Positions 3,949 to 26,039 of a DNA stretch of 64,000 nucleotides are shown here, piece after piece. Source of the DNA: Nitrospirota bacterium. Its GTDB lineage: Bacteria; Nitrospirota; Thermodesulfovibrionia; UBA6902. Below the pieces are notes generated by a model that was given only the letters and a program-made list of their open reading frames with translations, searched no databases and was not told the origin of the DNA. The stretch's first letter is position 1. Each line of letters opens with the position of its first letter. Location of the stretch: positions 132-64,131 of the forward strand of contig JBFLVX010000001.1 in NCBI GenBank assembly GCA_040758255.1, read 5' to 3'. The position numbers and the translations under genes are program-made.

Positions 3949-5556
3949 TTATCCGCCCTTCTTCCAGTAAGGGCTTGAGATATCTTCAAACACAGTAAGC
4001 GCTGCGACCGCTCCCTGCGAAACAGCGGTAACGATCTGCTTGACCCCTCCGGTGATATCCCCCGCTGCATATACAAGGGGCATGGATGTCCTCATGTGCC
4101 CGTCAACTTTCACATAACCTTCTTCGTCAAGTTCCAGCCCGATTTTCTTCGCTAAATCGTTATTGGGTTCATAACCTATTGCTATAAAAACGCCCTGTGC
4201 CGCCATATCCCTCTTATTCCCCGTTATTATGTCTTCAATCGTGACTTTTTCAACAACCGTTTTACCGTGGATTTCCTTCACAACACTGTTAAACAGAACA
4301 GGTATGTTCCTCTGAAACACACTCTGTTGAAGTCTCTCTTCAGCCCTGAAAGTATCTCTGCGGTGCACTAATGTCACATGCGCGCCGAGGCTGTCAAGAT
4401 AAAGGGCATCGGTCAAAGCGCTGTTCCCTCCGCCAACAACAATGACGTTCTTCCCGTCCTTAAAAAGGTATCCGTCACATGTAGCGCAATAGCTGACTCC
4501 CCTGCCCGCAAGGCTGGTCTCACCTGACGCATTGAGCGTCCTGCTGCCAGCGCCGGTTGCTATGATAATCGCCCTGGCATTGTATATTCCCCTTCCCGTA
4601 GCTACTTCAAAACCGTCTTTCTTTTTCTTTATCTCACTTACCCCGACTCCCTGAAGAAGGAGAGAGTATTCCAGTGTCTGTTTTACCATCATATCAACAA
4701 GCGTCCTGCCCGCGATCCTTGCAAAGCCGGGGTAATTTTCAACTACCGGGGTTATTGATATCTGCCCCCCGGCATTCGCGCTTTCAAACACTATGCTCTT
4801 AAGTCCGCTCCTCTCCGCGTACATGGCGGCTGTGAGTCCCGCGGGGCCTCCACCGATCACAACAATATCGTAATCCCTGAGATCCTGCCTTCCGGCGGGC
4901 ATGACATACTCTACGGGTTTTCCTTCAACTATGGACTCTATGAAATAATCCTCAGGGAGGAGCCCCGGCGCAATCAGTGTTTCACCGACAAAAGTTTTAG
5001 GAACGGACATAGCAGCATATTTTTCAGCAAGGTCCAAGTTCTCATAAATCTCAATAATCTCAACCGAAACCATATCTTTCTTCTCTATTACTGCCGATAC
5101 CGCATAGAGCACCTGCTGCGGACAGTAAGGACAGGTAGGGCTGACAAAGACGCGGACCTTCCTTTTTTCTGTAAGCCTCTCAAGCCGCTTTCTTGAATCA
5201 TCCGAAATAAAGTTCCTCCCCGTTGACGCCATTATTAAAGAGAGGACAAATGAACCGGCCTCTTCGCCTGCGGGAGCTCCGGTATAACGAATATTGTACT
5301 TATCAGGCGCTATAAGGATTGTAGGAGACCTTTCAATCCCGCGCTTCCTGGCGTGATCGTCCTTGAGCCTGTAAAAGTTCACCTTGATCTTGTCCGTAAG
5401 CTCGGGCATGACTTTCAGCAGGCTCACCGCAGCTTCATTGAACGGCTCATTCATACCCGCCTGAGTATAGACCTCGATCAGGACAGTATCTTTAAGCTGT
5501 TTAAACGCCTCACGCAGCGACCTCTTAATGTCTTCGTTGATAAGCTCTTTTTCCAT
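3949..5556 (-). CDS. AhpF-like NAD(P)H disulfide oxidoreductase: N-terminal thioredoxin/glutaredoxin-fold domain fused to a thioredoxin-reductase-like FAD/NAD(P) domain
   Basis: N-terminal CPYCP redox motif; FAD GxGxxG (IVVIGGGPAGLTAA); second dinucleotide fold VIVVGGGNSALTDA; redox-active CATCDG disulfide typical of TrxB/AhpF. Confidence 0.8.
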   Translation of the reverse strand: MEKELINEDIKRSLREAFKQLKDTVLIEVYTQAGMNEPFNEAAVSLLKVMPELTDKIKVNFYRLKDDHARKRGIERSPTILIAPDKYNIRYTGAPAGEEAGSFVLSLIMASTGRNFISDDSRKRLERLTEKRKVRVFVSPTCPYCPQQVLYAVSAVIEKKDMVSVEIIEIYENLDLAEKYAAMSVPKTFVGETLIAPGLLPEDYFIESIVEGKPVEYVMPAGRQDLRDYDIVVIGGGPAGLTAAMYAERSGLKSIVFESANAGGQISITPVVENYPGFARIAGRTLVDMMVKQTLEYSLLLQGVGVSEIKKKKDGFEVATGRGIYNARAIIIATGAGSRTLNASGETSLAGRGVSYCATCDGYLFKDGKNVIVVGGGNSALTDALYLDSLGAHVTLVHRRDTFRAEERLQQSVFQRNIPVLFNSVVKEIHGKTVVEKVTIEDIITGNKRDMAAQGVFIAIGYEPNNDLAKKIGLELDEEGYVKVDGHMRTSMPLVYAAGDITGGVKQIVTAVSQGAVAALTVFEDISSPYWKKGG

Positions 5557-5644
5557 AAGTACTATTTTATCAAAAATATCCGTAATCCTGCGTTATTCAC
5601 AGCGCAACTGTTTTTCAATGGCAGGGGAGAGATGATAAGCAAAA

Positions 5645-5674
5645 AAGGGGAATAAACCGTGGTTTATTCCCCTT
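5645..5674 (-). terminator. intrinsic-terminator-like hairpin (about 13-bp GC-containing stem followed by U-rich tract on the minus strand) inside the 5' leader of the AhpF-like gene
   Basis: Seen directly: AAGGGGAATAAACC / GGTTTATTCCCCTT perfect inverted repeat, followed on the minus strand by TTTTGCTTATC. It sits about 90 nt upstream of the ATG at 5556 with no upstream minus-strand gene to terminate. Confidence 0.45.
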
Positions 5675-5909
5675 GCGTAACATACAAGTTGCCTATTAAC
5701 TATTTGTTACGGTATCACCTCAAAGGCGTCAAGGTCTATTAAATTTATTTGAAATTTTGCAGTTAATAAAAAATAGTGTTATAAAAATAGCATAGCTCTA
5801 TATGTATTTTGTCAACAAATATTTACCAAAAAAATTAAAATAAAAGTCAACAGGGTTGCGTCTTGAATCGTGCGTGACTAATTATAAAAATTTGGACTGC
5901 ATTAAATTT

Positions 5910-6461
5910 ATGGAAGACCTGTCCCTTCACATCCTTGACATCGTAGAAAACTCGATAACCGCAGGAGCTGCAAATATACGGATAAAGATCAATGAAGATA
6001 CCGGAGAGAACCTTCTTCTTATAGAGATAAGCGATAATGGCAAAGGCATGGATGAGGAGATGCTTAAAAATGCCCTCGACCCTTTTCATACCACAAGGAC
6101 AACCCGCAACGTAGGGCTCGGCATCCCCTTTCTTGCGGATGCGGCAAGGGATACCGGCGGGGATATTGCCATAAAGTCTGTGAAGGGAGAAGGCACAACC
6201 ATTACCGCAACTTTCCGGCATGATCATATTGACAGAAAGCCTCTTGGAGATATTGGGAAGACCCTGATAGTAATTATCGCCTCCAACCCTGACATTGATA
6301 TTCTCTTTGAGTATAAAAAAAACAATTCTGAATATATGCTGGATACGGCAGAGATAAAGAAGGATCTGGACGGCGTCCCGATAAATACGCCGGGGGTAAT
6401 AAAGGCTATTGAAAATGATTTAAAAGAATGGTTTAATAGTACCAACCTTATGATAAAATAG
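5910..6461 (+). CDS. second histidine kinase-like ATPase (GHKL fold) of the cluster
   Basis: LHILDIVENSITAGA N-box-like, DNGKGMD, GLGIPF, VKGEGTTITATF G-boxes. The supplied ORF starts at a TTG at 5856; the ATG at 5910 is the more likely start. Confidence 0.65.
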   Translation: MEDLSLHILDIVENSITAGAANIRIKINEDTGENLLLIEISDNGKGMDEEMLKNALDPFHTTRTTRNVGLGIPFLADAARDTGGDIAIKSVKGEGTTITATFRHDHIDRKPLGDIGKTLIVIIASNPDIDILFEYKKNNSEYMLDTAEIKKDLDGVPINTPGVIKAIENDLKEWFNSTNLMIK

Positions 6462-6526
6462 TACGACGCGTGATGATAAATTTTTAAGTTGCAGGCGTCG
6501 AAAGGCCTGCCGTAAGAGCAAAGACT

Positions 6527-7294
6527 ATGGAAAAACAGCGCATCTTAGTGCTTGATGACGACCCTGTTGTAACCCTGAGCTGCAAGAGGATTCTCAGCTC
6601 CGAGGGCTTCATCATCTCCACAGTGGAAAAAGGAGAAGACGCCCTCAATAAATTAGCTAAAGAGGATTTTGACCTCTTAATAACCGATGTAAAACTTCCC
6701 GATATAAGCGGGATGGAGGTCCTTAAAGAGGCTCGCATAATAAAGCCAAATACGGATGTGGTGATAATTACCGGCTATCCTAACCTTGAAGACGCAAAGG
6801 AATCAACAGGGCTCGGAGCCGCTGAATACATAGAGAAACCATTTACTCCTGACTTCATGATAAATGTCGCAAAGAAGGTCTTTGACAAGAGGGGATGGAT
6901 ACTCAGGCAGGCGTTTGTTGATGAATTCAGGGACTCTGTCGTATCGTTAAGGGACAGGGAAAATCCGGTCCTCTTTTATAAAGAAGGCACATGGTCAAGG
7001 CCCATTAAGGGCGGATTATGGGAGATGGGATGCGACCTCAGGTATTGGCTTCTGAGCGGGGAGCTTGCGTATGTTGATTTTATAAAAGGCGTTGATGAAC
7101 TGAAAGCCGGAGAACCGTTTGCAAGGATCTACACAAGCGCCGGACAATCCAATGAACTGCTTTCGCCTATGAGCGCAGAGATCAGAGAAGTGAATGTAAA
7201 AGCAAATGATGTCATGACCGCCCTGCTTAAAGAGCATTTGTCGGAAGGGTGGTTATTGTGGCTGGCAAGGGTATTTCCAAAAGGTAACGATTAA
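6527..7294 (+). CDS. response-regulator receiver domain fused to a glycine-cleavage-H-like (GcvH-fold) domain that lacks the lipoyl-lysine
   Basis: REC motifs: LVLDDDPVV, phospho-acceptor D in DLLITDVKLP, KP in IEKPF. The C-terminal 120 aa align by eye to GcvH (Y.KE..W, VDF..G..L.AGEP.A.I.S..........P.S.EI.EVN, GWLLWLA) but have SAGQS where the lipoylated K sits. Confidence 0.7.
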   Translation: MEKQRILVLDDDPVVTLSCKRILSSEGFIISTVEKGEDALNKLAKEDFDLLITDVKLPDISGMEVLKEARIIKPNTDVVIITGYPNLEDAKESTGLGAAEYIEKPFTPDFMINVAKKVFDKRGWILRQAFVDEFRDSVVSLRDRENPVLFYKEGTWSRPIKGGLWEMGCDLRYWLLSGELAYVDFIKGVDELKAGEPFARIYTSAGQSNELLSPMSAEIREVNVKANDVMTALLKEHLSEGWLLWLARVFPKGND

Positions 7295-7531
7295 TCTTGT
7301 CCTTTAGCATTAATTGATACCTTGAATTTAACCCGGATAATGCAGATATTGCTCAATAACTTGTTTAACTCGATGATTTTTTTATTTGATTATTATATTA
7401 TGCATATGGCGTTAATTAAAAATATGCGCTGTTATAAAGATTAAATTCGATTAAGGTATCGAAAAACAAGTTCTTTCCCAACATCTGCATTATCTTAAAT
7501 GCTTTGATTTGGGAATTATACTGGAAGAACT

Positions 7532-8401
7532 ATGGCGGATAACGGGAAGATACTCGTTGTAGATGATGAACCGATAGTATTAAGGAGCTGTGAGAGGATA
7601 CTGAAATCGGAAGGGTACAGTATCGCCCTCGCCGCAGGCGGGCAGGAGGCGATAAATATCCTTCAAAAGGACGATTACGATCTGGTGATCACTGACCTGA
7701 AGATGCCTGAAGTTGACGGCATTGACTTGATAAAATGGCTGAGAAACTCAAAGCCGGCAACCGGGGTAGTTGTCATAACCGGCCATCCCTCGCAGGAGAC
7801 CATTAAAGATGCGCTTAATTTAGGCATAATTGACTACCTGCCGAAACCCTTTACCCCTCCGGTGCTTATAGATGTCACTGCAAAGGCCATGAAGATTACA
7901 ATGGTCAGGGCCTTGCCGGAAAAGACTCCTGAAGAGGATGAAGTTGAATCTAAGACCGCTGATCTTGAGAAGATCATAGCTGCAAACCGTAACAGGCCCG
8001 GAAGCCTTATCCCTGTTTTGCAGAAGGCTCAGGAGTTGATAGGATATCTCCCGCCGTCCGTTCAGAGGCATATAGCAAAAGGCCTGAATATTCCGGTCAG
8101 CGAAGTGCACGGCGTTGTCTCTTTCTATTCATTCTTCACAATGAAACCAAAAGGCAGGCATAGCGTAAAGGTTTGCCTTGGAACAGCCTGCTACGTAAAG
8201 AGGGCTGAAGAGATAATCGAAAAATTAAAAGCTACATTAAATATAAATGTCGGCGAGGTTACAAAAGACAGGAGATTCTCTCTTGAGAGTGTCAGGTGTC
8301 TCGGTGCATGCGGGCTGGCGCCAGTGGTCGTGATTGATCATGATACGCATGCATCTGTTGACCCTGTAAAGACTCCGGAGATACTTAAAGAATATGATTA
8401 A
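7532..8401 (+). CDS. response-regulator receiver domain fused to a NuoE/HoxE-like thioredoxin-fold [2Fe-2S] subunit (HndA-like)
   Basis: REC: VVDDEPIV, DLVITDLKMP, LPKPF. C-terminus: CLGTACYVKRAEEI ... VRCLGACGLAPVV, the four-Cys pattern of the 24-kDa NuoE family. Confidence 0.8.
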   Translation: MADNGKILVVDDEPIVLRSCERILKSEGYSIALAAGGQEAINILQKDDYDLVITDLKMPEVDGIDLIKWLRNSKPATGVVVITGHPSQETIKDALNLGIIDYLPKPFTPPVLIDVTAKAMKITMVRALPEKTPEEDEVESKTADLEKIIAANRNRPGSLIPVLQKAQELIGYLPPSVQRHIAKGLNIPVSEVHGVVSFYSFFTMKPKGRHSVKVCLGTACYVKRAEEIIEKLKATLNINVGEVTKDRRFSLESVRCLGACGLAPVVVIDHDTHASVDPVKTPEILKEYD

Positions 8402-17898: not shown

Positions 17899-20169
17899 TT
17901 ATCTCTTTGAGAAACTCTTCTTCCGCCTCTTTATTGCCATGAAGACAGCTCCGGCAGGTATGAACGCCATTAAGATATCTACACCATTTGCATCCTCTCC
18001 GGCAGTAATTGAGCAGCCCCCGCCTCCACCCCCTTCGGAACTCTCCCCGCTGGTTGTAGCGCCGGCTTCATTTGAGTAGCTTGAACTGCCCTCGGGATTG
18101 TATGCCTTTATACGATAATAAAAGAGAGTTGACGGATTGAGACCTGTATCATTGTATCCGGTTACATTGGCGCCAACTGCCGTTATTTCAGAGTATGTTC
18201 CTCCGTCTCCTGTCTTCCTCTCTATCCTGAAGCCTGTTTCATTATTTGAATTATCCGTCCATGTCAGATTTATACTGGAGCTTGACGCTGCTGCCGCATT
18301 CAGGCCGGAAGGAGCATTCAGCGGGACTAAATTAAGAACCGCACTATATGCGTTCAGCCTTCCGCCTGTTAAGGTCCGGCCTGACATTGAGGGTTTTAAA
18401 TCTGCAGAATTCAAGATGATCTCCTTTGCCTGCAGACTGCTCAAAGATGGATTGAGCGAAAGGATCAATCCCGCGGCGCCTGATACATGCGGGGCTGCCA
18501 TAGAAGCCCCGCTTTCATCAGCGTAAGAATAATTGCTTACAGTTAACGGCTCCCTTACAAGCCTGACATCATCAATATAGACCCCGTCAAAGTTCGCTGA
18601 GTCATCAGACGACAGGCCGAAGCCAAAATAGAAACTGTCGAGACTCTCGGCAACAGAGGTGAAATCAGCAGAATATGAAAGAAAGTTTCCATTTGTGCTC
18701 CCTGTCCTGAAATCTGTCCAATCCCAGTTGAGGCCGTCCGGCGAATAATTAATATCAAGGTAGTCAATGCCGTGTTCAAGATCAAGAACCCCTCTCCATT
18801 GAAATGACATGGTATAACGGTTATCCTTTTCAGAAACTACCTGTGACGCATACCATACGCGTGAACTCGTATTGTTAAGGTAATTCGCGGAAGGGCTGTC
18901 CTCAAGGCTGTTAGTGCCGCCAACGCCTGTGCCGCCTGTCACAGCCCATGTGCTATTTGTGCCTCCCCTGTCCCACCCCAATAAAGGGAGGCTCCCAGAT
19001 GCCCCTTCAAAATCCTCGCTGTAAACTGTTACCGGGCTTCCGGAGCTTATTATGGGGAAAGTGCTATATATATTAATCCCGGGGGCTGCAATGTCTACTG
19101 AATTTGTCCCAAAATTGGAAAATGTGGCGAGTGTATCATTCTGATCGGAGGCGGTGACAGATATTATGTTTGAACTTGTGTAGCTTGCGGGATAAAAAGG
19201 GATCGCATCATTATTCGTTCCGCTGTTTCCCGCAGCGCAGACAATTAGAGCGTTTGAGGCGTCTATTGCGTCCTTAAGCACCTGGCTGTACCCGCTTCCG
19301 CCCCAGCTGTTGTTTATTACTCTGGCTCCTTTGGCGTTTGCATAGAGAATGGCGGACGCGGCGTCGGCAGTTGTGCCGCTTCCGCTTACACCTAAAATTC
19401 TCAGGGGCATTATTTGCGCGTCCCACATCACACCTGCAATGCCGATGCTGTTATTGCCCTGCGCCGCGATAGTGCCTGATACATGAGTGCCGTGGCCGTC
19501 ATAGTCGGAAGGGTCGTTGTCATTGCCGATGAAATCCCAGCCATTGCAGTCATCTATATAACCGTTGCCTTCATTATCAATGCCGTCCGAACAATTTGTC
19601 TCCCCGGTGTTTCTCCAGATGTTGCCGGAAATATCCGGATGGCTGTTTGCAAGGCCCGTATCAACAACCGCAATAATCACGTCATGCGAGCCTGTTGTTA
19701 TATCCCATGCTTCAGGCGCGTCAATATCAGAATCGGAGGCGCCTCCGCTCTGTCCGGTATTGTTAAGCCCCCAGAGGTTGTTGAAATACTGATCCGAAGG
19801 CTCAGATGCTTTATGGATGATATAATTCGGTTCAGCATACTCGACATTCGGGTCATGCTGATAATGTTCGATCGCTTCTGCAACAGTGATATTTTCGGGA
19901 AGCTTTATCTGATCAACCATGATCTCTCTCATCTCTCTCTTCCTGACCGCATTGATGGAGGAATGAAGCCCTTTCGCTGTAATCCCGGATGTGCCGTCAC
20001 GGAACCTCACAAGAACTTCTCCCGGCACATAGTCAGCCTTATTTTTCGTATCAGCGGTTATGCCGCTCTGCTCTATTCCGGATATGCTGCTGGAAGATCC
20101 GCAGCCAAGCAAAGAAGAGAGTACGATCATTACTGCTGAAACTTTTAAAAATATTGGAATACTCTTCAT
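17899..20169 (-). CDS. secreted subtilisin-like serine protease (S8) with lipoprotein signal, fibronectin-III-like domain and a Gly-rich/Cys + TM + basic C-terminal sorting-signal-like tail
   Basis: Catalytic triad contexts VAVVDTGLAN (D), HGTHVSGTIAA (H), GTSMAAPHVSGAAGL (S); signal LLGCGSS; FN3-like INLTWTDNSNNETGFRIERK; tail GGGGGGCSI...VDILMAFIPAGAVFMAIKRRKKSFSKR. Confidence 0.85.
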   Translation of the reverse strand: MKSIPIFLKVSAVMIVLSSLLGCGSSSSISGIEQSGITADTKNKADYVPGEVLVRFRDGTSGITAKGLHSSINAVRKREMREIMVDQIKLPENITVAEAIEHYQHDPNVEYAEPNYIIHKASEPSDQYFNNLWGLNNTGQSGGASDSDIDAPEAWDITTGSHDVIIAVVDTGLANSHPDISGNIWRNTGETNCSDGIDNEGNGYIDDCNGWDFIGNDNDPSDYDGHGTHVSGTIAAQGNNSIGIAGVMWDAQIMPLRILGVSGSGTTADAASAILYANAKGARVINNSWGGSGYSQVLKDAIDASNALIVCAAGNSGTNNDAIPFYPASYTSSNIISVTASDQNDTLATFSNFGTNSVDIAAPGINIYSTFPIISSGSPVTVYSEDFEGASGSLPLLGWDRGGTNSTWAVTGGTGVGGTNSLEDSPSANYLNNTSSRVWYASQVVSEKDNRYTMSFQWRGVLDLEHGIDYLDINYSPDGLNWDWTDFRTGSTNGNFLSYSADFTSVAESLDSFYFGFGLSSDDSANFDGVYIDDVRLVREPLTVSNYSYADESGASMAAPHVSGAAGLILSLNPSLSSLQAKEIILNSADLKPSMSGRTLTGGRLNAYSAVLNLVPLNAPSGLNAAAASSSSINLTWTDNSNNETGFRIERKTGDGGTYSEITAVGANVTGYNDTGLNPSTLFYYRIKAYNPEGSSSYSNEAGATTSGESSEGGGGGGCSITAGEDANGVDILMAFIPAGAVFMAIKRRKKSFSKR

Positions 20170-20240
20170 AGTCTGCCTTTCTTAATGGATTATAAGGACG
20201 TATACCTGTCTTCTACTATATGAAGTACGGGATACCGGCG

Positions 20241-21026
20241 TCAAGATTTTTCCCTGCCGCTAACAGGAAAATATAGGGCATCTGCAAGTTTTGTAAAATC
20301 TATTATGCTTAACTTCTCCGGCCTGATGCCCGGGTCAATGTCAGCTTTCCGCAAAGCATCTTTGATGCCTTCAAATTTCTTTAAACTGTTTGTTACCGTC
20401 TTTCTCCGCTGAGAAAATGCGGCCTTCACCACGCTGAAAAAAAGCTCCTCATCTTTGACCGGATAAATAGGCGATTGAGAGACCTCAAAACTCACAACTG
20501 CTGAATCCACTTTTGGAGGCGGCAGAAACGCCTTGCGGGATACTGTAAATTCCAACTTTGGCTTTGTGTAAAACTGAGCAGAGATTGAGAGCACACCGTA
20601 CTCCTTGCTCCCGTGAGAAGCAGCGATCCTTCTTGCCACTTCCTTCTGCATCAGCAATGTCATGCTCGGTATCTTATCTTTGAATTCGAGCAGCCTGAAT
20701 AAAAGCGGTGTGGTTATATAGTATGGAATATTGGCAACGACCTTAAAATTGCCTTCAATCGTATCATACGGAAACTTCAGGGCATCGGCCTGTATGATCT
20801 GAACATTATTGTTAGCAGAAAGAATTCCCTCAAGCTTCTCAATCAATCTCTTATCAAGCTCAATTGCTATGACCTTCTTAGCATAGAGCGAGAGAAATCT
20901 TGTTAGCGTCCCCAACCCCGGGCCTATCTCAACAACCGTGTCATCCGGTGTCACACCGCTGCACTTTATAATCTTCTTAAGTATGTTGGGGTCAAAAAGA
21001 AAATGCTGTCCAAAAGGGCGTTTCAT
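20241..21026 (-). CDS. rsmA: 16S rRNA (adenine1518-N6/adenine1519-N6)-dimethyltransferase RsmA/KsgA
   Basis: MKRPFGQHFLFDPNILKKII N-terminus, SAM motif VVEIGPGLGTLT, NIPYYITTP motif. Confidence 0.9.
   Translation of the reverse strand: MKRPFGQHFLFDPNILKKIIKCSGVTPDDTVVEIGPGLGTLTRFLSLYAKKVIAIELDKRLIEKLEGILSANNNVQIIQADALKFPYDTIEGNFKVVANIPYYITTPLLFRLLEFKDKIPSMTLLMQKEVARRIAASHGSKEYGVLSISAQFYTKPKLEFTVSRKAFLPPPKVDSAVVSFEVSQSPIYPVKDEELFFSVVKAAFSQRRKTVTNSLKKFEGIKDALRKADIDPGIRPEKLSIIDFTKLADALYFPVSGREKS
20986..21026. repeat. 41-bp direct repeat copy 1 (covers the rsmA start codon and first 13 codons)
   Basis: ttggggtcaaaaagaaaatgctgtccaaaagggcgtttcat; second copy at 21855-21895 differs at one base. 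Confidence 0.85.
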
Positions 21027-21035
21027 AAAATCGCA

Positions 21036-21374
21036 CTATTTACCGCTAGCTGCCAGCGCATTCAATCTCTTCAATGTGTCGGGGAATTTTCTGACAAGCA
21101 GAATCAAGGCCGCGGCCTGCATATTAGGTTTTGAGCTGCCCTGCTCCCACTTTTCAAGCGTGCGGGGAGATACGCATAACTGATGGGCGAAGACAGACCT
21201 TGAAAGGCGCAGTTTATCACGCACTTCGCGGATTATTTCAGGTGTAACGGCAGGCTTATATTCTTTACCGACCTTGTATTCGCGCAAGGTTATCTTGCCT
21301 TTACGGTGTTGCCTTATTTCTTCAATCCCTGTTTTCAATTCCTGAAATAAATTTCTCTTTTTCATGCGTTCCAC
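21036..21374 (-). CDS. XRE-family helix-turn-helix antitoxin (HigA-like) of a type II TA pair
   Basis: HTH segment LSRSVFAHQLCVSPRTLEKWEQG; 112 aa; overlaps the upstream toxin gene by 13 bp in toxin-first order. Confidence 0.7.
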   Translation of the reverse strand: MERMKKRNLFQELKTGIEEIRQHRKGKITLREYKVGKEYKPAVTPEIIREVRDKLRLSRSVFAHQLCVSPRTLEKWEQGSSKPNMQAAALILLVRKFPDTLKRLNALAASGK

Positions 21375-21679
21375 TCCTCTACTAATTTTCTGAGCGACTT
21401 ACACTCATCAGACGTTAAATCCGCGACTTCATTCTTCCCATACAGTGTCAGCAAATATATCTGATCAGCGGCTGTTTGAAAATAATAGATTATCCTTATT
21501 CCGCCGCGCTTCCCTTTGCCTTTGGATTTCCAACGTATTTTTCTCAACCCGCCGGTCCTCTGCATTATATCCCCGGCCTCAGGATTCTCTGCAATATATA
21601 ACTGAAAATCCTTGTACTCTTCATCGGTCAGATAATCTGACACCAGTCTGGTAAATATCCTTGTTTCGATAAATACCAT
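21362..21679 (-). CDS. RelE/ParE-superfamily toxin (HigB-like, phage-related killer protein type)
   Basis: KGKGKRGGIRIIYYF motif characteristic of this RelE-like family; 105 aa; toxin-antitoxin gene order typical of higBA. Confidence 0.7.
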   Translation of the reverse strand: MVFIETRIFTRLVSDYLTDEEYKDFQLYIAENPEAGDIMQRTGGLRKIRWKSKGKGKRGGIRIIYYFQTAADQIYLLTLYGKNEVADLTSDECKSLRKLVEEWNA

Positions 21680-21854
21680 GATTAATTATACCCAAATAGC
21701 GTATAGTATGGCAACTCGTTCATTTCTCCACACCTTCTTATGTCCATATTCATCAACGATATTGCAAAGGAATCGCCCTGCGTTCCATTTCCTCCCGTGC
21801 ATGTCTGGAGATTTCAAATGTCATTCTATCCCCGTCTCCTCACTCTCCCGCCCC

Positions 21855-21895
21855 TTGGGGTCAAAAAGAAAATGCTGTCCAAAAGGTCGTTTCAT
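21855..21895 (-). pseudogene. orphan duplicate of the rsmA 5' end (encodes MKRPFGQHFLFDP then diverges); 41-bp direct repeat copy 2
   Basis: Reverse complement reads atgaaacgaccttttggacagcattttctttttgacccc, identical to the rsmA N-terminus except one silent-position change; no continuation of the rsmA frame. Confidence 0.7.
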
Positions 21896-22098
21896 TGAAG
21901 TTTCTCAATTAATGAATTTTGCCATTTTTCGGAATGTTTTGTTCCCAACTTACATTGCCATAGCTCAATCACTTTCCATCCTGCCTTTTTTAATTGCTGG
22001 ATATTCTTTTTATCCCGCTCAACATTCCCGTTTATCTTCTTTTCCCAAAACCGTTTCCTCGTCTCCGGCAGTATAGGGTTCTCGTGGCACTTTTGGAT

Positions 22099-22893
22099 TC
22101 ATTCCCTGAAAATATTTTTGTGATGATATTCTAAAAATTCTTTTGAAGGCAAAAATTTATCTGGCAACATGATAGATTTATTTTCATATTTAAGAAACAT
22201 CTCGTTAACTATATTTTCTTTTTTAAAATCATTGAAATATTTCGAAATTTTGATTTCATAATTAGCCGTAACAGTTATAAAACCTTTATCAAATGCCTTA
22301 TCGTGAAGCGAATTTAAACACAAACCATTATGAGGATTTAATCTGTTTTTTTCATCTTTTGACCAGGGAATAATATGACTTGCAACTAATAAATCTGGAA
22401 TTGATAAACCTGTAATGCAACACTTCAAATTATAAGAGGAAAGAATTGTAGAGCGAAAAAAACTTTGATTAACCCTTGCTTTGATTATTGCTTCCCTTTC
22501 CGCTCCTGCTGGAATGTCAGCAATGTTTATTTCTGAAAATGTCTCTAAAGGTCGATTTGCAAATTTTGCAATCAACAATTCGCTTTCATAAGCAAGATTA
22601 TCCCAATCATTATTGAATTCTTTCCAGATAATTTCATCCAGCTTGCTTGTATTTCCTAAACCAACAATTCCTCTCTTCTTTAATTCAGGGTCAAAACTTC
22701 CAAAATTTCCGATTTTCATTTTGACAGAATTTGGTGTCCTGCCTATGATTTTTGCAATACGAATTATATCTGGATGCTTTGAACTAACTCTATTGAAAGG
22801 AATTTTACAATAAAGATTTAACGCAACAATTGTTTGTTCTCTTGTCCATGTATCTTTTGGCATTTTAGTATTTCCTGACCCTTTTTTATCCAA
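22099..22893 (-). CDS. stand-alone HNH endonuclease (HNH_2-type, restriction-endonuclease-like) in a low-GC patch
   Basis: ASHIIPWSKDEKNRLNPHNGLCLNSLHDKAFDKG HNH core; strongly AT-rich codon usage compared with flanking genes. Confidence 0.7.
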   Translation of the reverse strand: MDKKGSGNTKMPKDTWTREQTIVALNLYCKIPFNRVSSKHPDIIRIAKIIGRTPNSVKMKIGNFGSFDPELKKRGIVGLGNTSKLDEIIWKEFNNDWDNLAYESELLIAKFANRPLETFSEINIADIPAGAEREAIIKARVNQSFFRSTILSSYNLKCCITGLSIPDLLVASHIIPWSKDEKNRLNPHNGLCLNSLHDKAFDKGFITVTANYEIKISKYFNDFKKENIVNEMFLKYENKSIMLPDKFLPSKEFLEYHHKNIFRE

Positions 22894-22946
22894 AATAGGA
22901 ATGCTCCATTTTACAACAATAAGGGTAAGGAGAAAAGTGTGCGGTA

Positions 22947-25900
22947 TTATACCGCCCGCACTTCCCCAATATGCGTAAAGACTATGAACGACTTAACCGC
23001 GTTTGTATTGAATATCTTACTCACCGCTTTTTTGTAAATATCAAGCTGGAATGAATGTTCTTTCACAAGTTCTTTCATCTCATCATCCGCAACGGGAAAT
23101 GTCTTGTAATCATAAATATTGTAAGCATCGCCCTCTTTTATTATCCTGTCTATTCTTCCCCTGTAAACAGCGGTCCCTGATTCAAGAACAAAAGGTACTT
23201 CGGCAAATGAATCTTTCACAGGTTGAATGATGCCCTGCCATATACCTTTCTCTTTAAGAAGCGCGACGGTCTTTTTTATCTCGGTAATTCCGTCTTCAGA
23301 CTCGGACTCATTCATTCCTCTGGATATGAAGAGCCTTGCCGCCATTTCCGCTATACCGTCATCTGTTATATCACCTTTGGATATCTTCTCAAATATCTCG
23401 TGCAGTATCTCTCCCGGAACTGCCGTCTTCATGCCCTGACCCTTTATCAAAATACCGCCGGTGACGGTCTTCCATTCTTTCTCTGCTCTCACAGGCGTTG
23501 GTATGAAATCCGCACGAGGAGGTCTTTTCTTTTTTCCGGCAGAAGCTGCAACCGGCGGGGCTATTATTCCGGCTCCGTCAACAATTGAGAGCCCCGGAAT
23601 ATCTTCTTTAACACTGTAACCGTCATCAATCTTCTCAAGCACTACGCCCTCTTTCAGATAGCTGAGAAAGCTCTTTCCCCGCTCTTTCCATGTAGTGATA
23701 AGAAAGAGCGCCTCTTCAGCCCTTGTAACGGCAACATAAAAGAGCCTCTTCTGCTCCTCCTCTTCTTTCATCAGATGGAGCTGGAAGTCCTCATCCCCTC
23801 TCCTCAACGCAGCATCAGTTACAGACTTAAAGAAGAACTTCCCCTCTTTTTCATACACAAGGTTCTCATTATTTCTTAAGGTGAATTGGTCTTCGATCGC
23901 CGGAAGAAAGACAACCGGGAACTCCAGTCCTTTTGCCGTATGTATCGTCAGTATCTTTACCGCATTCATGCCTTCAGCATTCACATTCGCCTTCGCCTCT
24001 TCTTCCCGGCTTATCGTCCTCTCAAGGAACGCCCTGATCTTTATAAGCGGCCTTCCGCCTGACTCTGTCTCTTCCATGATCCTGATGAACTTCTTTATAT
24101 TCGCGCGCTGCTGCGGCTCGTAATAATAACGCCATGCGCCTGTCTCAACGAGAACACGCTCTATCAGCTCGGCAAGCGGTGTCTCTTTGATCACCAAGAA
24201 CCATTTGTCAAGAAGCGATACCGTTCTTTCTACGCTACTTTCTTGCGCACAAATGCCATGCAATTTTGAAAACAAGCTATCGCCTTCTTCCCCCGCAGCC
24301 TTCAGCACAACATCTTCATCAAGCAGAAATAACGGGCTTTTAAGCAGAACATAGAGGCTGTAATCATCCTTTGTATTTGAGAGAAAATATACCAACGCCC
24401 GGAGTACCGCAACCTCAGGCTCCTGATAAAAGCCGATCCCCTTTACCGCGATAAATGGGATGCCATGCCTGATCAGCGCCTCCTCATATTTTTTCAGATG
24501 CGTTCTTTTTCTAAGGAGTATGGCGATGTCAGCATGCATGCATTCTCTCTGAATCCCGGTCTTTCTCTCTGTGATGCGTAGGCTGCCGACAAGCCCCTTT
24601 ATCTTCTTTGCGATTACATCAGCCTCTCTCTCCCTCTGAAGCGATATGCCCTCATCCTCATCTTCAAGCATTATCAGCTCTACAATCCCTCTGCCTGTCA
24701 GGTTCTTTCTATTCGCTTCGAACTCGCCGTATCCGGTCATCCACGCTGGCGCGGCGTCATCAGCGGACATTATCTTTGAGAATACGGCATTTGTAAATTC
24801 TATTATCGCAGGCGCGCTACGGTAGTTCTCCTTCACCTCTTCATAATAAAACTCATCTCCAAGCCACTCCGAGAGCTTCTCCTTTGCCCTGCGGAATATC
24901 TCGACATTCGCGCCCCTGAAGTAATATATGGACTGTTTTCTGTCGCCTACGAGGAATACCGTCGGCCTTATCCCCTCGTCCCTCTTTGCGCCCAAGCCTG
25001 AGCGCCACTCCTCAGTAAGCCTGTCTATCACAGCCCACTGGAAATTATTCGTATCCTGAAATTCATCCACGAGAATATGGTCTGTCTTCTCGTCAAACGC
25101 GTAAAGGATGTTCGCCCACTCAGGCTCTTCAGTGAGCATGCGATACGCAATGTATTCAAGATCGCTGAAGTCAAGAAGCGCTCTGGAGCTCTTTAGAAAC
25201 TCATGCCTCTTAAGGCAGCTTTTGAATATCTCCCTTATCCTCAGCGCCCTGTTTGCGTACTCCTCAAGTTTTTTCTCTCTCCAGAAGTCGTGCATCTTCA
25301 CTGCCCACTCTTTATATTCAGCTATTCCGCTCAGTCCTTTCGGAGTTTTTTTGCGCGGCTCTTTATCCTTTGTAAGAAAGTGATCTTCAAAACCAGCCGT
25401 CTTTTCAGTTTCTCTCTCATTGAAATAATCACGGTAGCCGTCAATCGCTTCTTCCGCGCCCTCCCATGAGAGTAGTTCATCGAGCAATTGCGGCGTGTCA
25501 GTTGACTCATGCACCGGGACAACCGCTTCAAGAGAGAAGGGCCTCTTCTCATAAAGGTAATTGACCGTGTCGCTGAGGCTTGCGAGCCCCCTGAAACCTT
25601 TCTCTCCAATGGTCTGAAGAAATAGCTCATGATTACCGTCTCCTGATCCTGCCTCCATAAGGAGTTCGTATATTATCTCCTCCCACATTATCCTTGAGTC
25701 GATCGCATTCTCAACCCTGTAATTTGCGTCTATCCCTGCCTCAAATGAGAAACGCCTCAAAAGCGTTCCGCAGAAAGAATGAATGGTCGAGACTCGCATT
25801 AGCGGCATCTTCTCAATCAAGGAATCAAAAAGGCGGCTGTCCTCTGCCTTCAGTATCGTCAGGATCCTCTGCTTCATCTCAGCCGCGGCCTTATCAGTGA

Positions 25901-26036
25901 ATGTGACAGCGAGGATCCTCTCAACACCTGCCCCGCTCTTTAATAGCGCGATATATCTTCTTGCGAGCTTCTCGGTCTTGCCCGAGCCTGCCGGCGATGA
26001 GATGATAACGCTCTTGTCAGTATTGAGGTAACTCAT
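22947..26036 (-). CDS. AddA/PcrA-like UvrD-family helicase with C-terminal PD-(D/E)xK nuclease domain
   Basis: Walker A SSPAGSGKTEKL, UvrD motifs ILVDEFQDTN, VGDRKQSIYYFRGA, C-terminal RIDRI...YNIYDYKT nuclease motif. Confidence 0.8.
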   Translation of the reverse strand: MSYLNTDKSVIISSPAGSGKTEKLARRYIALLKSGAGVERILAVTFTDKAAAEMKQRILTILKAEDSRLFDSLIEKMPLMRVSTIHSFCGTLLRRFSFEAGIDANYRVENAIDSRIMWEEIIYELLMEAGSGDGNHELFLQTIGEKGFRGLASLSDTVNYLYEKRPFSLEAVVPVHESTDTPQLLDELLSWEGAEEAIDGYRDYFNERETEKTAGFEDHFLTKDKEPRKKTPKGLSGIAEYKEWAVKMHDFWREKKLEEYANRALRIREIFKSCLKRHEFLKSSRALLDFSDLEYIAYRMLTEEPEWANILYAFDEKTDHILVDEFQDTNNFQWAVIDRLTEEWRSGLGAKRDEGIRPTVFLVGDRKQSIYYFRGANVEIFRRAKEKLSEWLGDEFYYEEVKENYRSAPAIIEFTNAVFSKIMSADDAAPAWMTGYGEFEANRKNLTGRGIVELIMLEDEDEGISLQREREADVIAKKIKGLVGSLRITERKTGIQRECMHADIAILLRKRTHLKKYEEALIRHGIPFIAVKGIGFYQEPEVAVLRALVYFLSNTKDDYSLYVLLKSPLFLLDEDVVLKAAGEEGDSLFSKLHGICAQESSVERTVSLLDKWFLVIKETPLAELIERVLVETGAWRYYYEPQQRANIKKFIRIMEETESGGRPLIKIRAFLERTISREEEAKANVNAEGMNAVKILTIHTAKGLEFPVVFLPAIEDQFTLRNNENLVYEKEGKFFFKSVTDAALRRGDEDFQLHLMKEEEEQKRLFYVAVTRAEEALFLITTWKERGKSFLSYLKEGVVLEKIDDGYSVKEDIPGLSIVDGAGIIAPPVAASAGKKKRPPRADFIPTPVRAEKEWKTVTGGILIKGQGMKTAVPGEILHEIFEKISKGDITDDGIAEMAARLFISRGMNESESEDGITEIKKTVALLKEKGIWQGIIQPVKDSFAEVPFVLESGTAVYRGRIDRIIKEGDAYNIYDYKTFPVADDEMKELVKEHSFQLDIYKKAVSKIFNTNAVKSFIVFTHIGEVRAV

Positions 26037-26039
26037 GGT

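Follow-up and report, generated by a model that had tools for sequence, protein, structure and literature searches.

Core defence hotspots located between conserved genes (cDHS) have been described in Pseudomonas aeruginosa (PMC10250203), and toxin-antitoxin (TA) islets integrate through flanking core genes without mobile elements (PMC13617665). For the orphan arrays of type VI secretion system (T6SS) and Rhs loci, a model of homology-facilitated illegitimate recombination (HFIR) and displacement has been proposed (PMC5361080). The locus described here lies in a contig of a Nitrospirota bacterium (class Thermodesulfovibrionia; assembly GCA_040758255.1, contig JBFLVX010000001.1, positions 132 to 64,131), and the whole analysed stretch of 64,000 nucleotides is referred to below as the window. 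It contains two copies of the first 41 nt of rsmA, one belonging to the functional gene and the other forming an orphan stub on the far side of a TA pair. The junction between addA and rsmA is a defence hotspot in related genomes, and the repeat is probably, with considerable room left for doubt, a scar of one-sided homologous and illegitimate recombination within it.

Organisation of the rsmA start repeat

The repeat and the genes it encloses have the following positions in the window.

20241..21026, minus strand: functional rsmA, encoding 16S rRNA dimethyltransferase, 261 aa (Pfam RrnaAD, E 8e-64, residues 2-248)
20986..21026, minus strand: proximal copy of the repeat, rsmA nt 1-41, that is codons 1-13 plus 2 nt (repeat search)
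21036..21365, minus strand: antitoxin, HTH_3, NadS-like or MqsA-C-terminal-like, 109 aa from ATG (HTH_3, 31 bits, cut-off 23)
21362..21679, minus strand: toxin of the RelE/ParE superfamily, PF06296, 105 aa (Pfam, 33.5 bits, cut-off 27)
21855..21895, minus strand: orphan rsmA stub, nt 1-41 (repeat search and alignment)

Repeat and pattern searches of the window identify a direct repeat at 20986-21026 and 21855-21895, with an identity of 40/41 and a start-to-start distance of 869 nt. The 41-mer is present in exactly two copies, no further one being found within the window when up to 3 mismatches are allowed, and none of 100 dinucleotide-preserving shuffles matches it (0/100). The repeat is confirmed and is non-random. 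It begins exactly at the ATG and stops at nt 41, and the sequences outside it are unrelated. The stub differs from the functional copy by a single synonymous change at nt 9 and reads MKRPFGQHFLFDPKGRESEETGIE. Its frame is still open over 24 codons (MKRPFGQHFLFDPKGRESEETGIE; window 21855-21926), and its TGA overlaps the ATG of a short open reading frame (ORF) that resembles the beginning of a DUF4258 gene.

All of the relevant genes are located on the minus strand. In gene direction they are arranged as an addA-like gene, a terminator-like hairpin, an HNH_2 gene, the C-terminal part of a Vsr gene, the stub, 175 nt, the toxin, the antitoxin, 9 nt, rsmA and an S8 peptidase gene.

Allelic differences between the two copies

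Stubs are also present in related loci, which were fetched for comparison and are labelled with L-numbers (L001-L055, L134 and others). When each stub is compared with the functional rsmA of its own locus, the differences fall in the third codon position in 1/1 cases in the window, 4/4 in L041, 5/5 in L052 and 13/14 in L051. The total of 23/24 has a P of 1.7e-10 (6e-6 for L051 alone), which argues that the copies diverged as working genes in separate lineages and were joined later by recombination. Judged from these substitutions, the stub and the functional start represent two functional alleles rather than the products of an in-situ duplication.

The window and L041 are 97.5% identical over 8.4 kb and share an identical layout, including the RelE/helix-turn-helix (HTH) pair. 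Their stubs differ by 3 synonymous changes within 16 nt (of 41), while the nearby DNA is about 99% identical (P 0.007). Over window positions 19200-27700 the two sequences have 211 differences, which are strongly clustered, with 8 in rsmA nt 39-72 and dense blocks in addB/addA; this clustering points to mosaic (patchy) homologous recombination in the population. The pattern within the stub suggests that the stub itself may have served as a crossover substrate.

The addA-rsmA junction in related genomes

The order of addA, an interval of 0 to >8 kb, rsmA and the S8 peptidase gene is kept across L001-L055 and L134 (50-odd loci). The RsmA orthologues of L001-L055 are 62-92% identical and are followed by the same S8 peptidase gene. 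By its RsmA relatives, the window belongs to groundwater Nitrospirota (Thermodesulfovibrionia). The empty site, with the stop codon of addA adjoining or overlapping the start codon of rsmA, is found in L004, L005, L007, L011, L019, L021, L027, L029, L030, L037 and L049. Of these, L049 belongs to the close clade and encodes an RsmA 92% identical to that of the window. Since the empty site is present in both close and distant relatives, the arrangement in the window is derived.

The filled junctions hold from 0.6 to >8 kb of varied cargo. Pfam and PADLOC assign to it type III restriction-modification (R-M) genes, GmrSD/HEC-06, DUF559, complete Vsr, Bro-N/DinD, a Ppl/OLD-like ATPase with AlbA_2, DUF2326/PDC-M68B, a short prokaryotic Argonaute (pAgo), a CARF/kinase pair, PIN and RelE TA pairs and an unannotated three-gene cassette. 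No integrase, transposase or serine or tyrosine recombinase was detected by Pfam and PADLOC between addA and rsmA in the window and island-bearing relatives (about 45 loci, scanned in all but a few small ORFs). The sole tyrosine recombinase met, of XerC/D type, is encoded in the distant L020, whose synteny differs and which is island-free. Because varied defence cargo occurs without integrase or transposase, the junction is an integrase-free defence-gene hotspot. With its conserved flanks, its empty and variably filled states and its defence-enriched cargo, it shows both defining features of such sites.

Several observations concern the cargo and the flanks. In L013 (670-2340), three co-oriented genes coding for proteins of 256, 120 and 178 aa stand directly upstream of rsmA and have no Pfam or PADLOC match; this cassette is a candidate for an unknown defence system. 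The pAgo, a protein of 507 aa, is encoded in L009 (300-1823; PADLOC pAgo_I, E 7e-194). In L003, L012, L014, L023, L028 and L051, the last 30 nt or so before the rsmA ATG are the end of the type III res gene, ...CCGATTTCATCGGTTTCNGAATTGAC(T/C)TAA, with no gap between the two genes. These res 3' ends are near-identical although RsmA is only 72-83% identical among the genomes concerned, which suggests that one R-M island spread recently through the hotspot. A leader (...ATGAAACTTCAC...CAGAAATAYCAGACTTAR) lies about 42 nt upstream of rsmA in L002, L024, L025, L033, L036, L052 (before the stub), L053 and L134. It is found in island-bearing genomes and not at empty sites, is 42 nt long and shares its first 7 nt with rsmA. 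It may represent either a transplanted promoter or leader or a stub of greater age that has decayed; its likeness to rsmA is statistically undetectable. Downstream of rsmA, L005, L009 and L012 have two tandem, diverged copies of the S8/fervidolysin-like peptidase gene. A 2-nt deletion at rsmA nt 39-41 in L040 was considered as an excision footprint and discounted, as the contig also contains several addA frameshifts.

Recurrence of the stub with different cargo

The stub is followed by the same sequence in loci that carry wholly different genes. In L052 (RsmA 90% identical) and its decayed relative L001 (91%), rsmA nt 1-41 are likewise followed by GGGGCGGGAGAGT(G/T)AGGA, and the junction, CCCCAA followed directly by GGGGCGGGAGAGT, is identical in these PIN_3 loci and in the window. 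The cargo between the common edges of L052 and L001 consists of a 62-aa antitoxin and a PIN_3 toxin, wholly unlike the TA pair of the window. L051 (RsmA 91%) carries a third TA type, DUF433 with PIN_10/DUF5615; the stub that precedes it measures about 110 nt and is joined directly to the stop codon of a type III res gene. The arrangement of stub, TA pair and full rsmA thus recurs with three unrelated TA types, behind stubs of 41 nt and about 110 nt. The three pairs are co-oriented with rsmA and end 9, 56 and 0 nt before its ATG.

The same stub junction is present, with sequence differences, in four independent assemblies (window, L041, L052 and L001). It is older than the strain represented by the window, and the cargo on both sides of it has since been exchanged. 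A phylogenetic grouping of the stub carriers was rejected: rsmA identities in the close clade are star-like (85-91%), and the carriers are no closer to each other than to non-carriers.

These results bear on the two origins that the earlier note on this DNA had offered. Its description of a 41-bp duplication of the rsmA start, with one mismatch and an orphan fragment, bracketing a TA pair and about 175 bp, is borne out by the repeat search. Its second alternative, capture of a cassette through recombination, agrees best with the data, and the empty sites show that the arrangement is derived. Its first, a discrete element that integrated while supplying a replacement gene start, is not supported, on several counts. 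The junction lacks integrase and transposase genes in the approximately 45 related loci, the same stub junction carries another TA pair in L052 and L001 with a third behind the longer stub of L051, and the third-position differences identify the two copies as different alleles. Relatives share the duplicated arrangement without any mobile-element signature, an outcome that the note itself had named as speaking against an element. Identical cassette ends at other loci, for which it had proposed to search, were not seen either: the closest copies of the TA module elsewhere (85% nt identity) lie between hsdM and hsdS, with different flanks.

The edges of the cassette are defined by three further features.

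21027..21037, minus strand: right edge of the shared frame, the 11 nt (AGTGCGATTTT) that immediately precede the functional ATG (shared with L041; 10/11 in L052, 8/11 in L001)
21037..21739, minus strand: TA module, delimited by blastn homology to the nearest copies at other loci (L042-44, 85% nt identity)
21837..21854, minus strand: 18 nt (GGGGCGGGAGAGTGAGGA) directly after the stub (18/18 in L041, 17/18 in L052, decayed in L001)

The 11 nt before the functional ATG have the form AGTGCGATTWT in the window clade and are common to its members despite their different TA cargo. At the left edge, a 15-nt core, GCGGGAGAGTGAGGA, adjoins three unrelated cargos, in the window, L052 and L013, with flanks that differ on both sides; 0.002 chance hits are expected for it in the fetched loci. 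Stub and motif together are 57/60 identical between the window and L052, though rsmA itself is only 88% identical. The recurrence of the motif and of the break at nt 41/42 hints at one travelling island end composed of leader and stub, or at a preferred site.

An origin of the motif from a displaced addA 3' end was tried and rejected: an nhmmer profile of addA ends matched the true addA end only, and local alignments scored no higher than those of shuffled sequences (p 0.16-0.29). For the repeat, an attP of phage or provirus origin with the rsmA start in it was dismissed as well, since a degenerate 38-nt pattern of the rsmA start has 0 matches in the 2.9 million viral contigs of IMG/VR. The 15-nt motif has 78 matches in IMG/VR, which by estimate is about the chance level for a 15-mer and is uninformative.

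Stubs carried with islands to other loci

Fragments of the rsmA start are also found away from the hotspot. The L025 contig encodes a KdpD 82-90% identical to Brocadia/Kuenenia proteins and is therefore a genuine contig of the Brocadiaceae (anammox planctomycetes). It contains a 3.9-kb island with Ppl/OLD-like and AlbA_2 genes (4143-8042) that is 83.6% identical in nucleotide sequence to L024 597-4518. The homology extends from 40 nt before the first gene to rsmA nt 41-42 and is followed by unrelated sequence to the contig end. L024 is binned as Bacteroidia yet has Nitrospirota addA and rsmA flanks, and it is probably mis-binned. The presence of this island both at a Nitrospirota-type locus and in a planctomycete implies transfer across phyla.

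In L023, the type III res gene together with rsmA codons 1-77 is located at an unrelated locus, the fragment ending at about nt 245. In L134 (280-540), the Vsr fragment of the window and a scrap of about 30 nt of the HNH 3' end follow a DinD-like gene and stand before a complete rsmA, without a TA pair. Taken together, L025, L023 and L134 indicate that islands are excised together with pieces of rsmA, and that successive arrivals stack the remnants of their right ends against rsmA. The layered remnants observed are the truncated Vsr, the HNH 3' scrap of L134 and the N-terminal DUF4258 scrap.

The toxin-antitoxin module and expression of rsmA

The toxin and antitoxin genes are small, adjacent and co-oriented, with the toxin upstream of the antitoxin, as in higBA, and the antitoxin ATG overlapping the toxin stop codon (ATGA). 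Homologues of the toxin (n=1309) have a typical length of 103-105 aa. The 109-aa call for the antitoxin gene is identical in L041 and L042, and the encoded protein matches the NCBIfam MqsA-family and NadS models under their cut-offs only. The toxin gives no match to the HigB family, PF05015. Exact-protein look-ups for the RsmA and the toxin of the window returned no match. By these sequence features the pair is assigned to the RelE-superfamily/HTH type II TA systems with higBA order, and not to the HigB family proper.

Outside this lineage, the module is most similar to copies in L042-44. These stand in a type I system, with hsdM on one side and hsdS on the other, and have flanks unlike those of the window. 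The homology overlaps the last ~20 nt of the hsdM ORF in L042, which may simply be module sequence. More remote copies (73%) occur in other defence or metabolic contexts, and none has the flanks of the window. A tblastn search for hsdM remains in the 115 nt that separate stub and module gave nothing. Judged by these contexts, the RelE/HTH module is a passenger of a kind seen in other defence contexts.

One further feature bears on the expression of rsmA.

21685..21714, minus strand: best sigma-70-like promoter match of the region, TTGCCA-18-TATAAT, 11/12 (consensus scan), 6 nt upstream of the toxin ATG

This site is the probable promoter of the TA operon, and the consensus scan found no terminator-like site between it and rsmA. 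The gap between the antitoxin stop codon and the rsmA ATG is 9 nt. The native upstream sequence of rsmA has been lost in the window, and the Shine-Dalgarno sequence GGGAGG of relatives with the empty site is missing before the gene. The promoter-like site, the lack of a terminator-like site, the short gap and the loss of GGGAGG together suggest that rsmA is probably transcribed from the TA promoter. The gene of a rRNA methyltransferase would then probably have been placed under an autoregulated TA promoter, with its translation coupled to that of the antitoxin.

Two statements of the earlier note are relevant here. Its suggestion that rsmA was displaced from its original promoter and may depend on read-through from the TA operon agrees with the 9-nt spacing behind the antitoxin, the lack of a terminator-like site and the promoter-like match before the toxin. 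Its HigB/HigA-like label holds for the gene order but not for the toxin family, which is PF06296 instead of the HigB family PF05015.

Neighbouring genes and remnants

The region between the TA module and the left flank of the hotspot contains the following features.

21753..21824, minus strand: 23-codon ORF, MTFEISRHAREEMERRAIPLQYR* (sole Pfam match DUF4258, E 0.038, below cut-off)
21892..22098, minus strand: Vsr mismatch endonuclease gene, C-terminal third only, its TGA overlapping the stub ATG (translation)
22099..22863, minus strand: HNH_2 nuclease gene, restriction-enzyme-like (Pfam HNH_2, 6.5e-13; PADLOC HNH, 3.4e-98)
22941..22955, minus strand: terminator-like hairpin and T-tract over the addA stop codon (terminator scan)
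22947..26036, minus strand: addA-like UvrD/PD-(D/E)XK helicase-nuclease gene, the left conserved flank of the hotspot (Pfam; orthologues upstream of rsmA in most relatives)

L008 encodes a full Vsr (Pfam Vsr 4.5e-30), and the Vsr fragment of the window matches its C-terminus at 74% identity. The N-terminally truncated gene of the window abuts the HNH_2 stop codon in a segment of low GC content (26-35% in the GC profile), within which the HNH_2 gene is also located. Residues 5-20 of the 23-codon ORF align weakly to the DUF4258 profile (its positions 1-16 of 71). On this weak evidence, the ORF probably represents what is left of the N-terminal end of a DUF4258 gene that stood here before the RelE module displaced it. 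No second copy of this 23-aa scrap was found by tblastn among the fetched loci. A structured RNA at the locus was considered and rejected, as positions 20000-23200 give no Rfam match at E up to 1.

Origin of the repeat

If the repeat is a recombination scar, exchange at the hotspot would usually proceed by homologous recombination anchored in the conserved addA and rsmA flanks, and occasionally one incoming end would be joined illegitimately (HFIR or sequential displacement). One fragment end would have fallen 41 nt into rsmA, leaving the 5' stub of one allele on the island of HNH_2 and Vsr remnant. This stub would have been joined to a block comprising cassette remnants, the TA module and a second, complete rsmA allele. 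A recombinant that lost an addictive TA pair would die, so that clean flank-to-flank replacement would be disfavoured beside TA pairs; rare illegitimate joins upstream of the TA pair would survive, and stubs would be seen before TA cassettes. It is plausible that the TA pair keeps the remnant in place. Several points weigh against this reconstruction. No donor sequence was recovered, and the illegitimate join and its microhomology are postulated. The direction of the event may have been either, with the island and stub arriving or the TA pair and rsmA arriving. The link between TA addiction and stubs is drawn from three cassette types, two of which share one junction, and the co-transcription of rsmA with the TA genes from consensus scans only. 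Random illegitimate joins would not be expected to place the 15-nt motif at the left edge of three unrelated cargos, nor to break rsmA at nt 41 (window clade) and again at nt 41-42 (the Brocadiaceae island) with different right-hand partners.

The last two points are those on which a site-specific origin would draw. A recombinase or nuclease whose gene lies elsewhere would insert non-autonomous cassettes, similar to cis-mobilisable elements (CIMEs) or integron cassettes, at rsmA nt 41/42, with the repeat as attL/attR and the 15-18-nt motif as the end or core site. The direct repeats bound the insert exactly, the break falls at nt 41 or 41-42 with two different right-hand partners, the chance expectation for GCGGGAGAGTGAGGA at three left edges is only 0.002, and stub and motif are better conserved between the window and L052 (57/60) than rsmA (88%). 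This origin is nevertheless unlikely. No recombinase is present at or near the junction in any island-bearing locus, the only one, of XerC/D type, being in the island-free L020. In L051 the stub reaches to about nt 110, and in L023 the fragment extends to about nt 245. At their right ends the cassettes have no common motif beyond the 11 nt of the window clade, the TA module has other flanks elsewhere, no inverted repeats or attC-like structure flank the cassette, and the 2.9 million viral contigs contain no copy of the rsmA start. The stronger form of this idea is distinctly unlikely: nt 41/42 and GCGGGAGAGTGAGGA would be a true cassette slot, at which a trans-acting recombinase or a defined nuclease cut (e.g. 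by a hotspot restriction enzyme) swaps TA and defence cassettes and regenerates the gene start. If true, the slot would be an analogue of the integron without a recombinase in cis, with the 5' end of a housekeeping gene as its attachment site.

Direct repeats around an insert and a regenerated gene start would likewise result from Campbell-type integration, in which a circularised TA module carrying the first ~41 nt of rsmA undergoes a single RecA-dependent crossover that duplicates the homology. Such an event needs no dedicated recombinase and is compatible with allelic differences between the copies. It is quite improbable here, given that 41 nt is near the minimum substrate for RecA-mediated exchange, that the insert includes remnants of other genes (the DUF4258 scrap) and is not a clean unit, and that the same left junction occurs with different cargo in L052, suggesting that the junction predates the TA module; the stubs at foreign loci (L023, L025) would also be left unexplained. 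A duplication of the rsmA start in situ, by replication slippage or as a target-site duplication followed by neutral decay of the orphan, would agree with the 40/41 identity in the window. It is very improbable in view of the 23/24 third-position differences (P 1.7e-10) and the 3 synonymous differences between the stubs of near-identical strains, and because 41 and about 110 nt far exceed known target-site duplications. An artefact of the metagenome assembly deserves a thought inasmuch as 41 nt lies within the k-mer range of assemblers, but its probability is negligible, since four assemblies made independently from different samples (window, L041, L052 and L001) all contain the stub junction, with sequence differences.

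Comparison with known systems

The addA-rsmA junction is a previously undescribed defence hotspot in uncultivated groundwater Nitrospirota, with >10 cargo types including a three-gene cassette without known domains. It preserves a legible record of the turnover of an integrase-free hotspot, in the form of layered remnants, allelic stubs of a flank gene and an island that took an rsmA stub across phyla into an anammox bacterium. It also suggests a testable idea, namely that an addictive TA pair beside a flank gene blocks clean replacement and forces rare illegitimate joins that leave stubs.

As in type II TA systems of higBA order, the toxin gene of the window comes first, the genes overlap by ATGA, the toxin has a RelE fold and the antitoxin is an HTH (Xre-type) protein. 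The module differs from these systems in that its toxin belongs to PF06296 instead of PF05015 and its antitoxin is NadS-like or MqsA-C-terminal-like, below the curated cut-offs.

The locus resembles integrase-mediated islands and CIMEs in having its insert between direct repeats made from a gene end, next to a gene that stays intact. However, no integrase is found in the window or at the corresponding site of relatives, stubs come in two lengths (41 and about 110 nt), neither the cargo nor its ends are constant, and the closest TA copies elsewhere have other flanks. The crossover position is shared only in part: the window, L041, L052 and L001 have one junction and L025 breaks at nt 41-42, L051 and L023 break at about nt 110 and nt 245, and the flanks of the TA modules in L042-48 differ. 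Chromosomal integrons likewise hold small promoter-bearing TA cassettes in a slot of cargo exchange, where TA pairs are thought to stabilise the array. Here there is no IntI, there are no attI/attC palindromes and no GTTRRRY cores, and the repeat is coding sequence of the neighbouring gene; the repeat search revealed no flanking inverted repeats or attC palindromes around the cassette. By the defining features of both classes, the locus does not qualify as an integrase-borne island or as an integron.

The likeness to the remaining systems is closer. The T6SS effector-immunity, Rhs and contact-dependent inhibition (CDI) orphan arrays are likewise attributed to HFIR and sequential displacement (PMC5361080), in which an incoming module anchored by a conserved segment displaces resident DNA, leaving layers of orphans and remnants whose repeated pieces are allelic. 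Their pieces are 3' toxin tips with immunity genes, which may still be useful, whereas the piece left here is a 41-nt 5' stub of a housekeeping gene beside a retained TA pair. With the core defence hotspots (PMC10250203) and TA islets (PMC13617665) the locus shares variable defence cargo at a fixed housekeeping junction, the lack of integrase and transposase, and an exchange attributed to homologous recombination in the flanks. It differs from them in that its flanks are addA and rsmA, in Thermodesulfovibrionia, and that a piece of the right-flank gene was left as a stub inside the hotspot. The locus is a new example explained by known processes, not a new kind of system.

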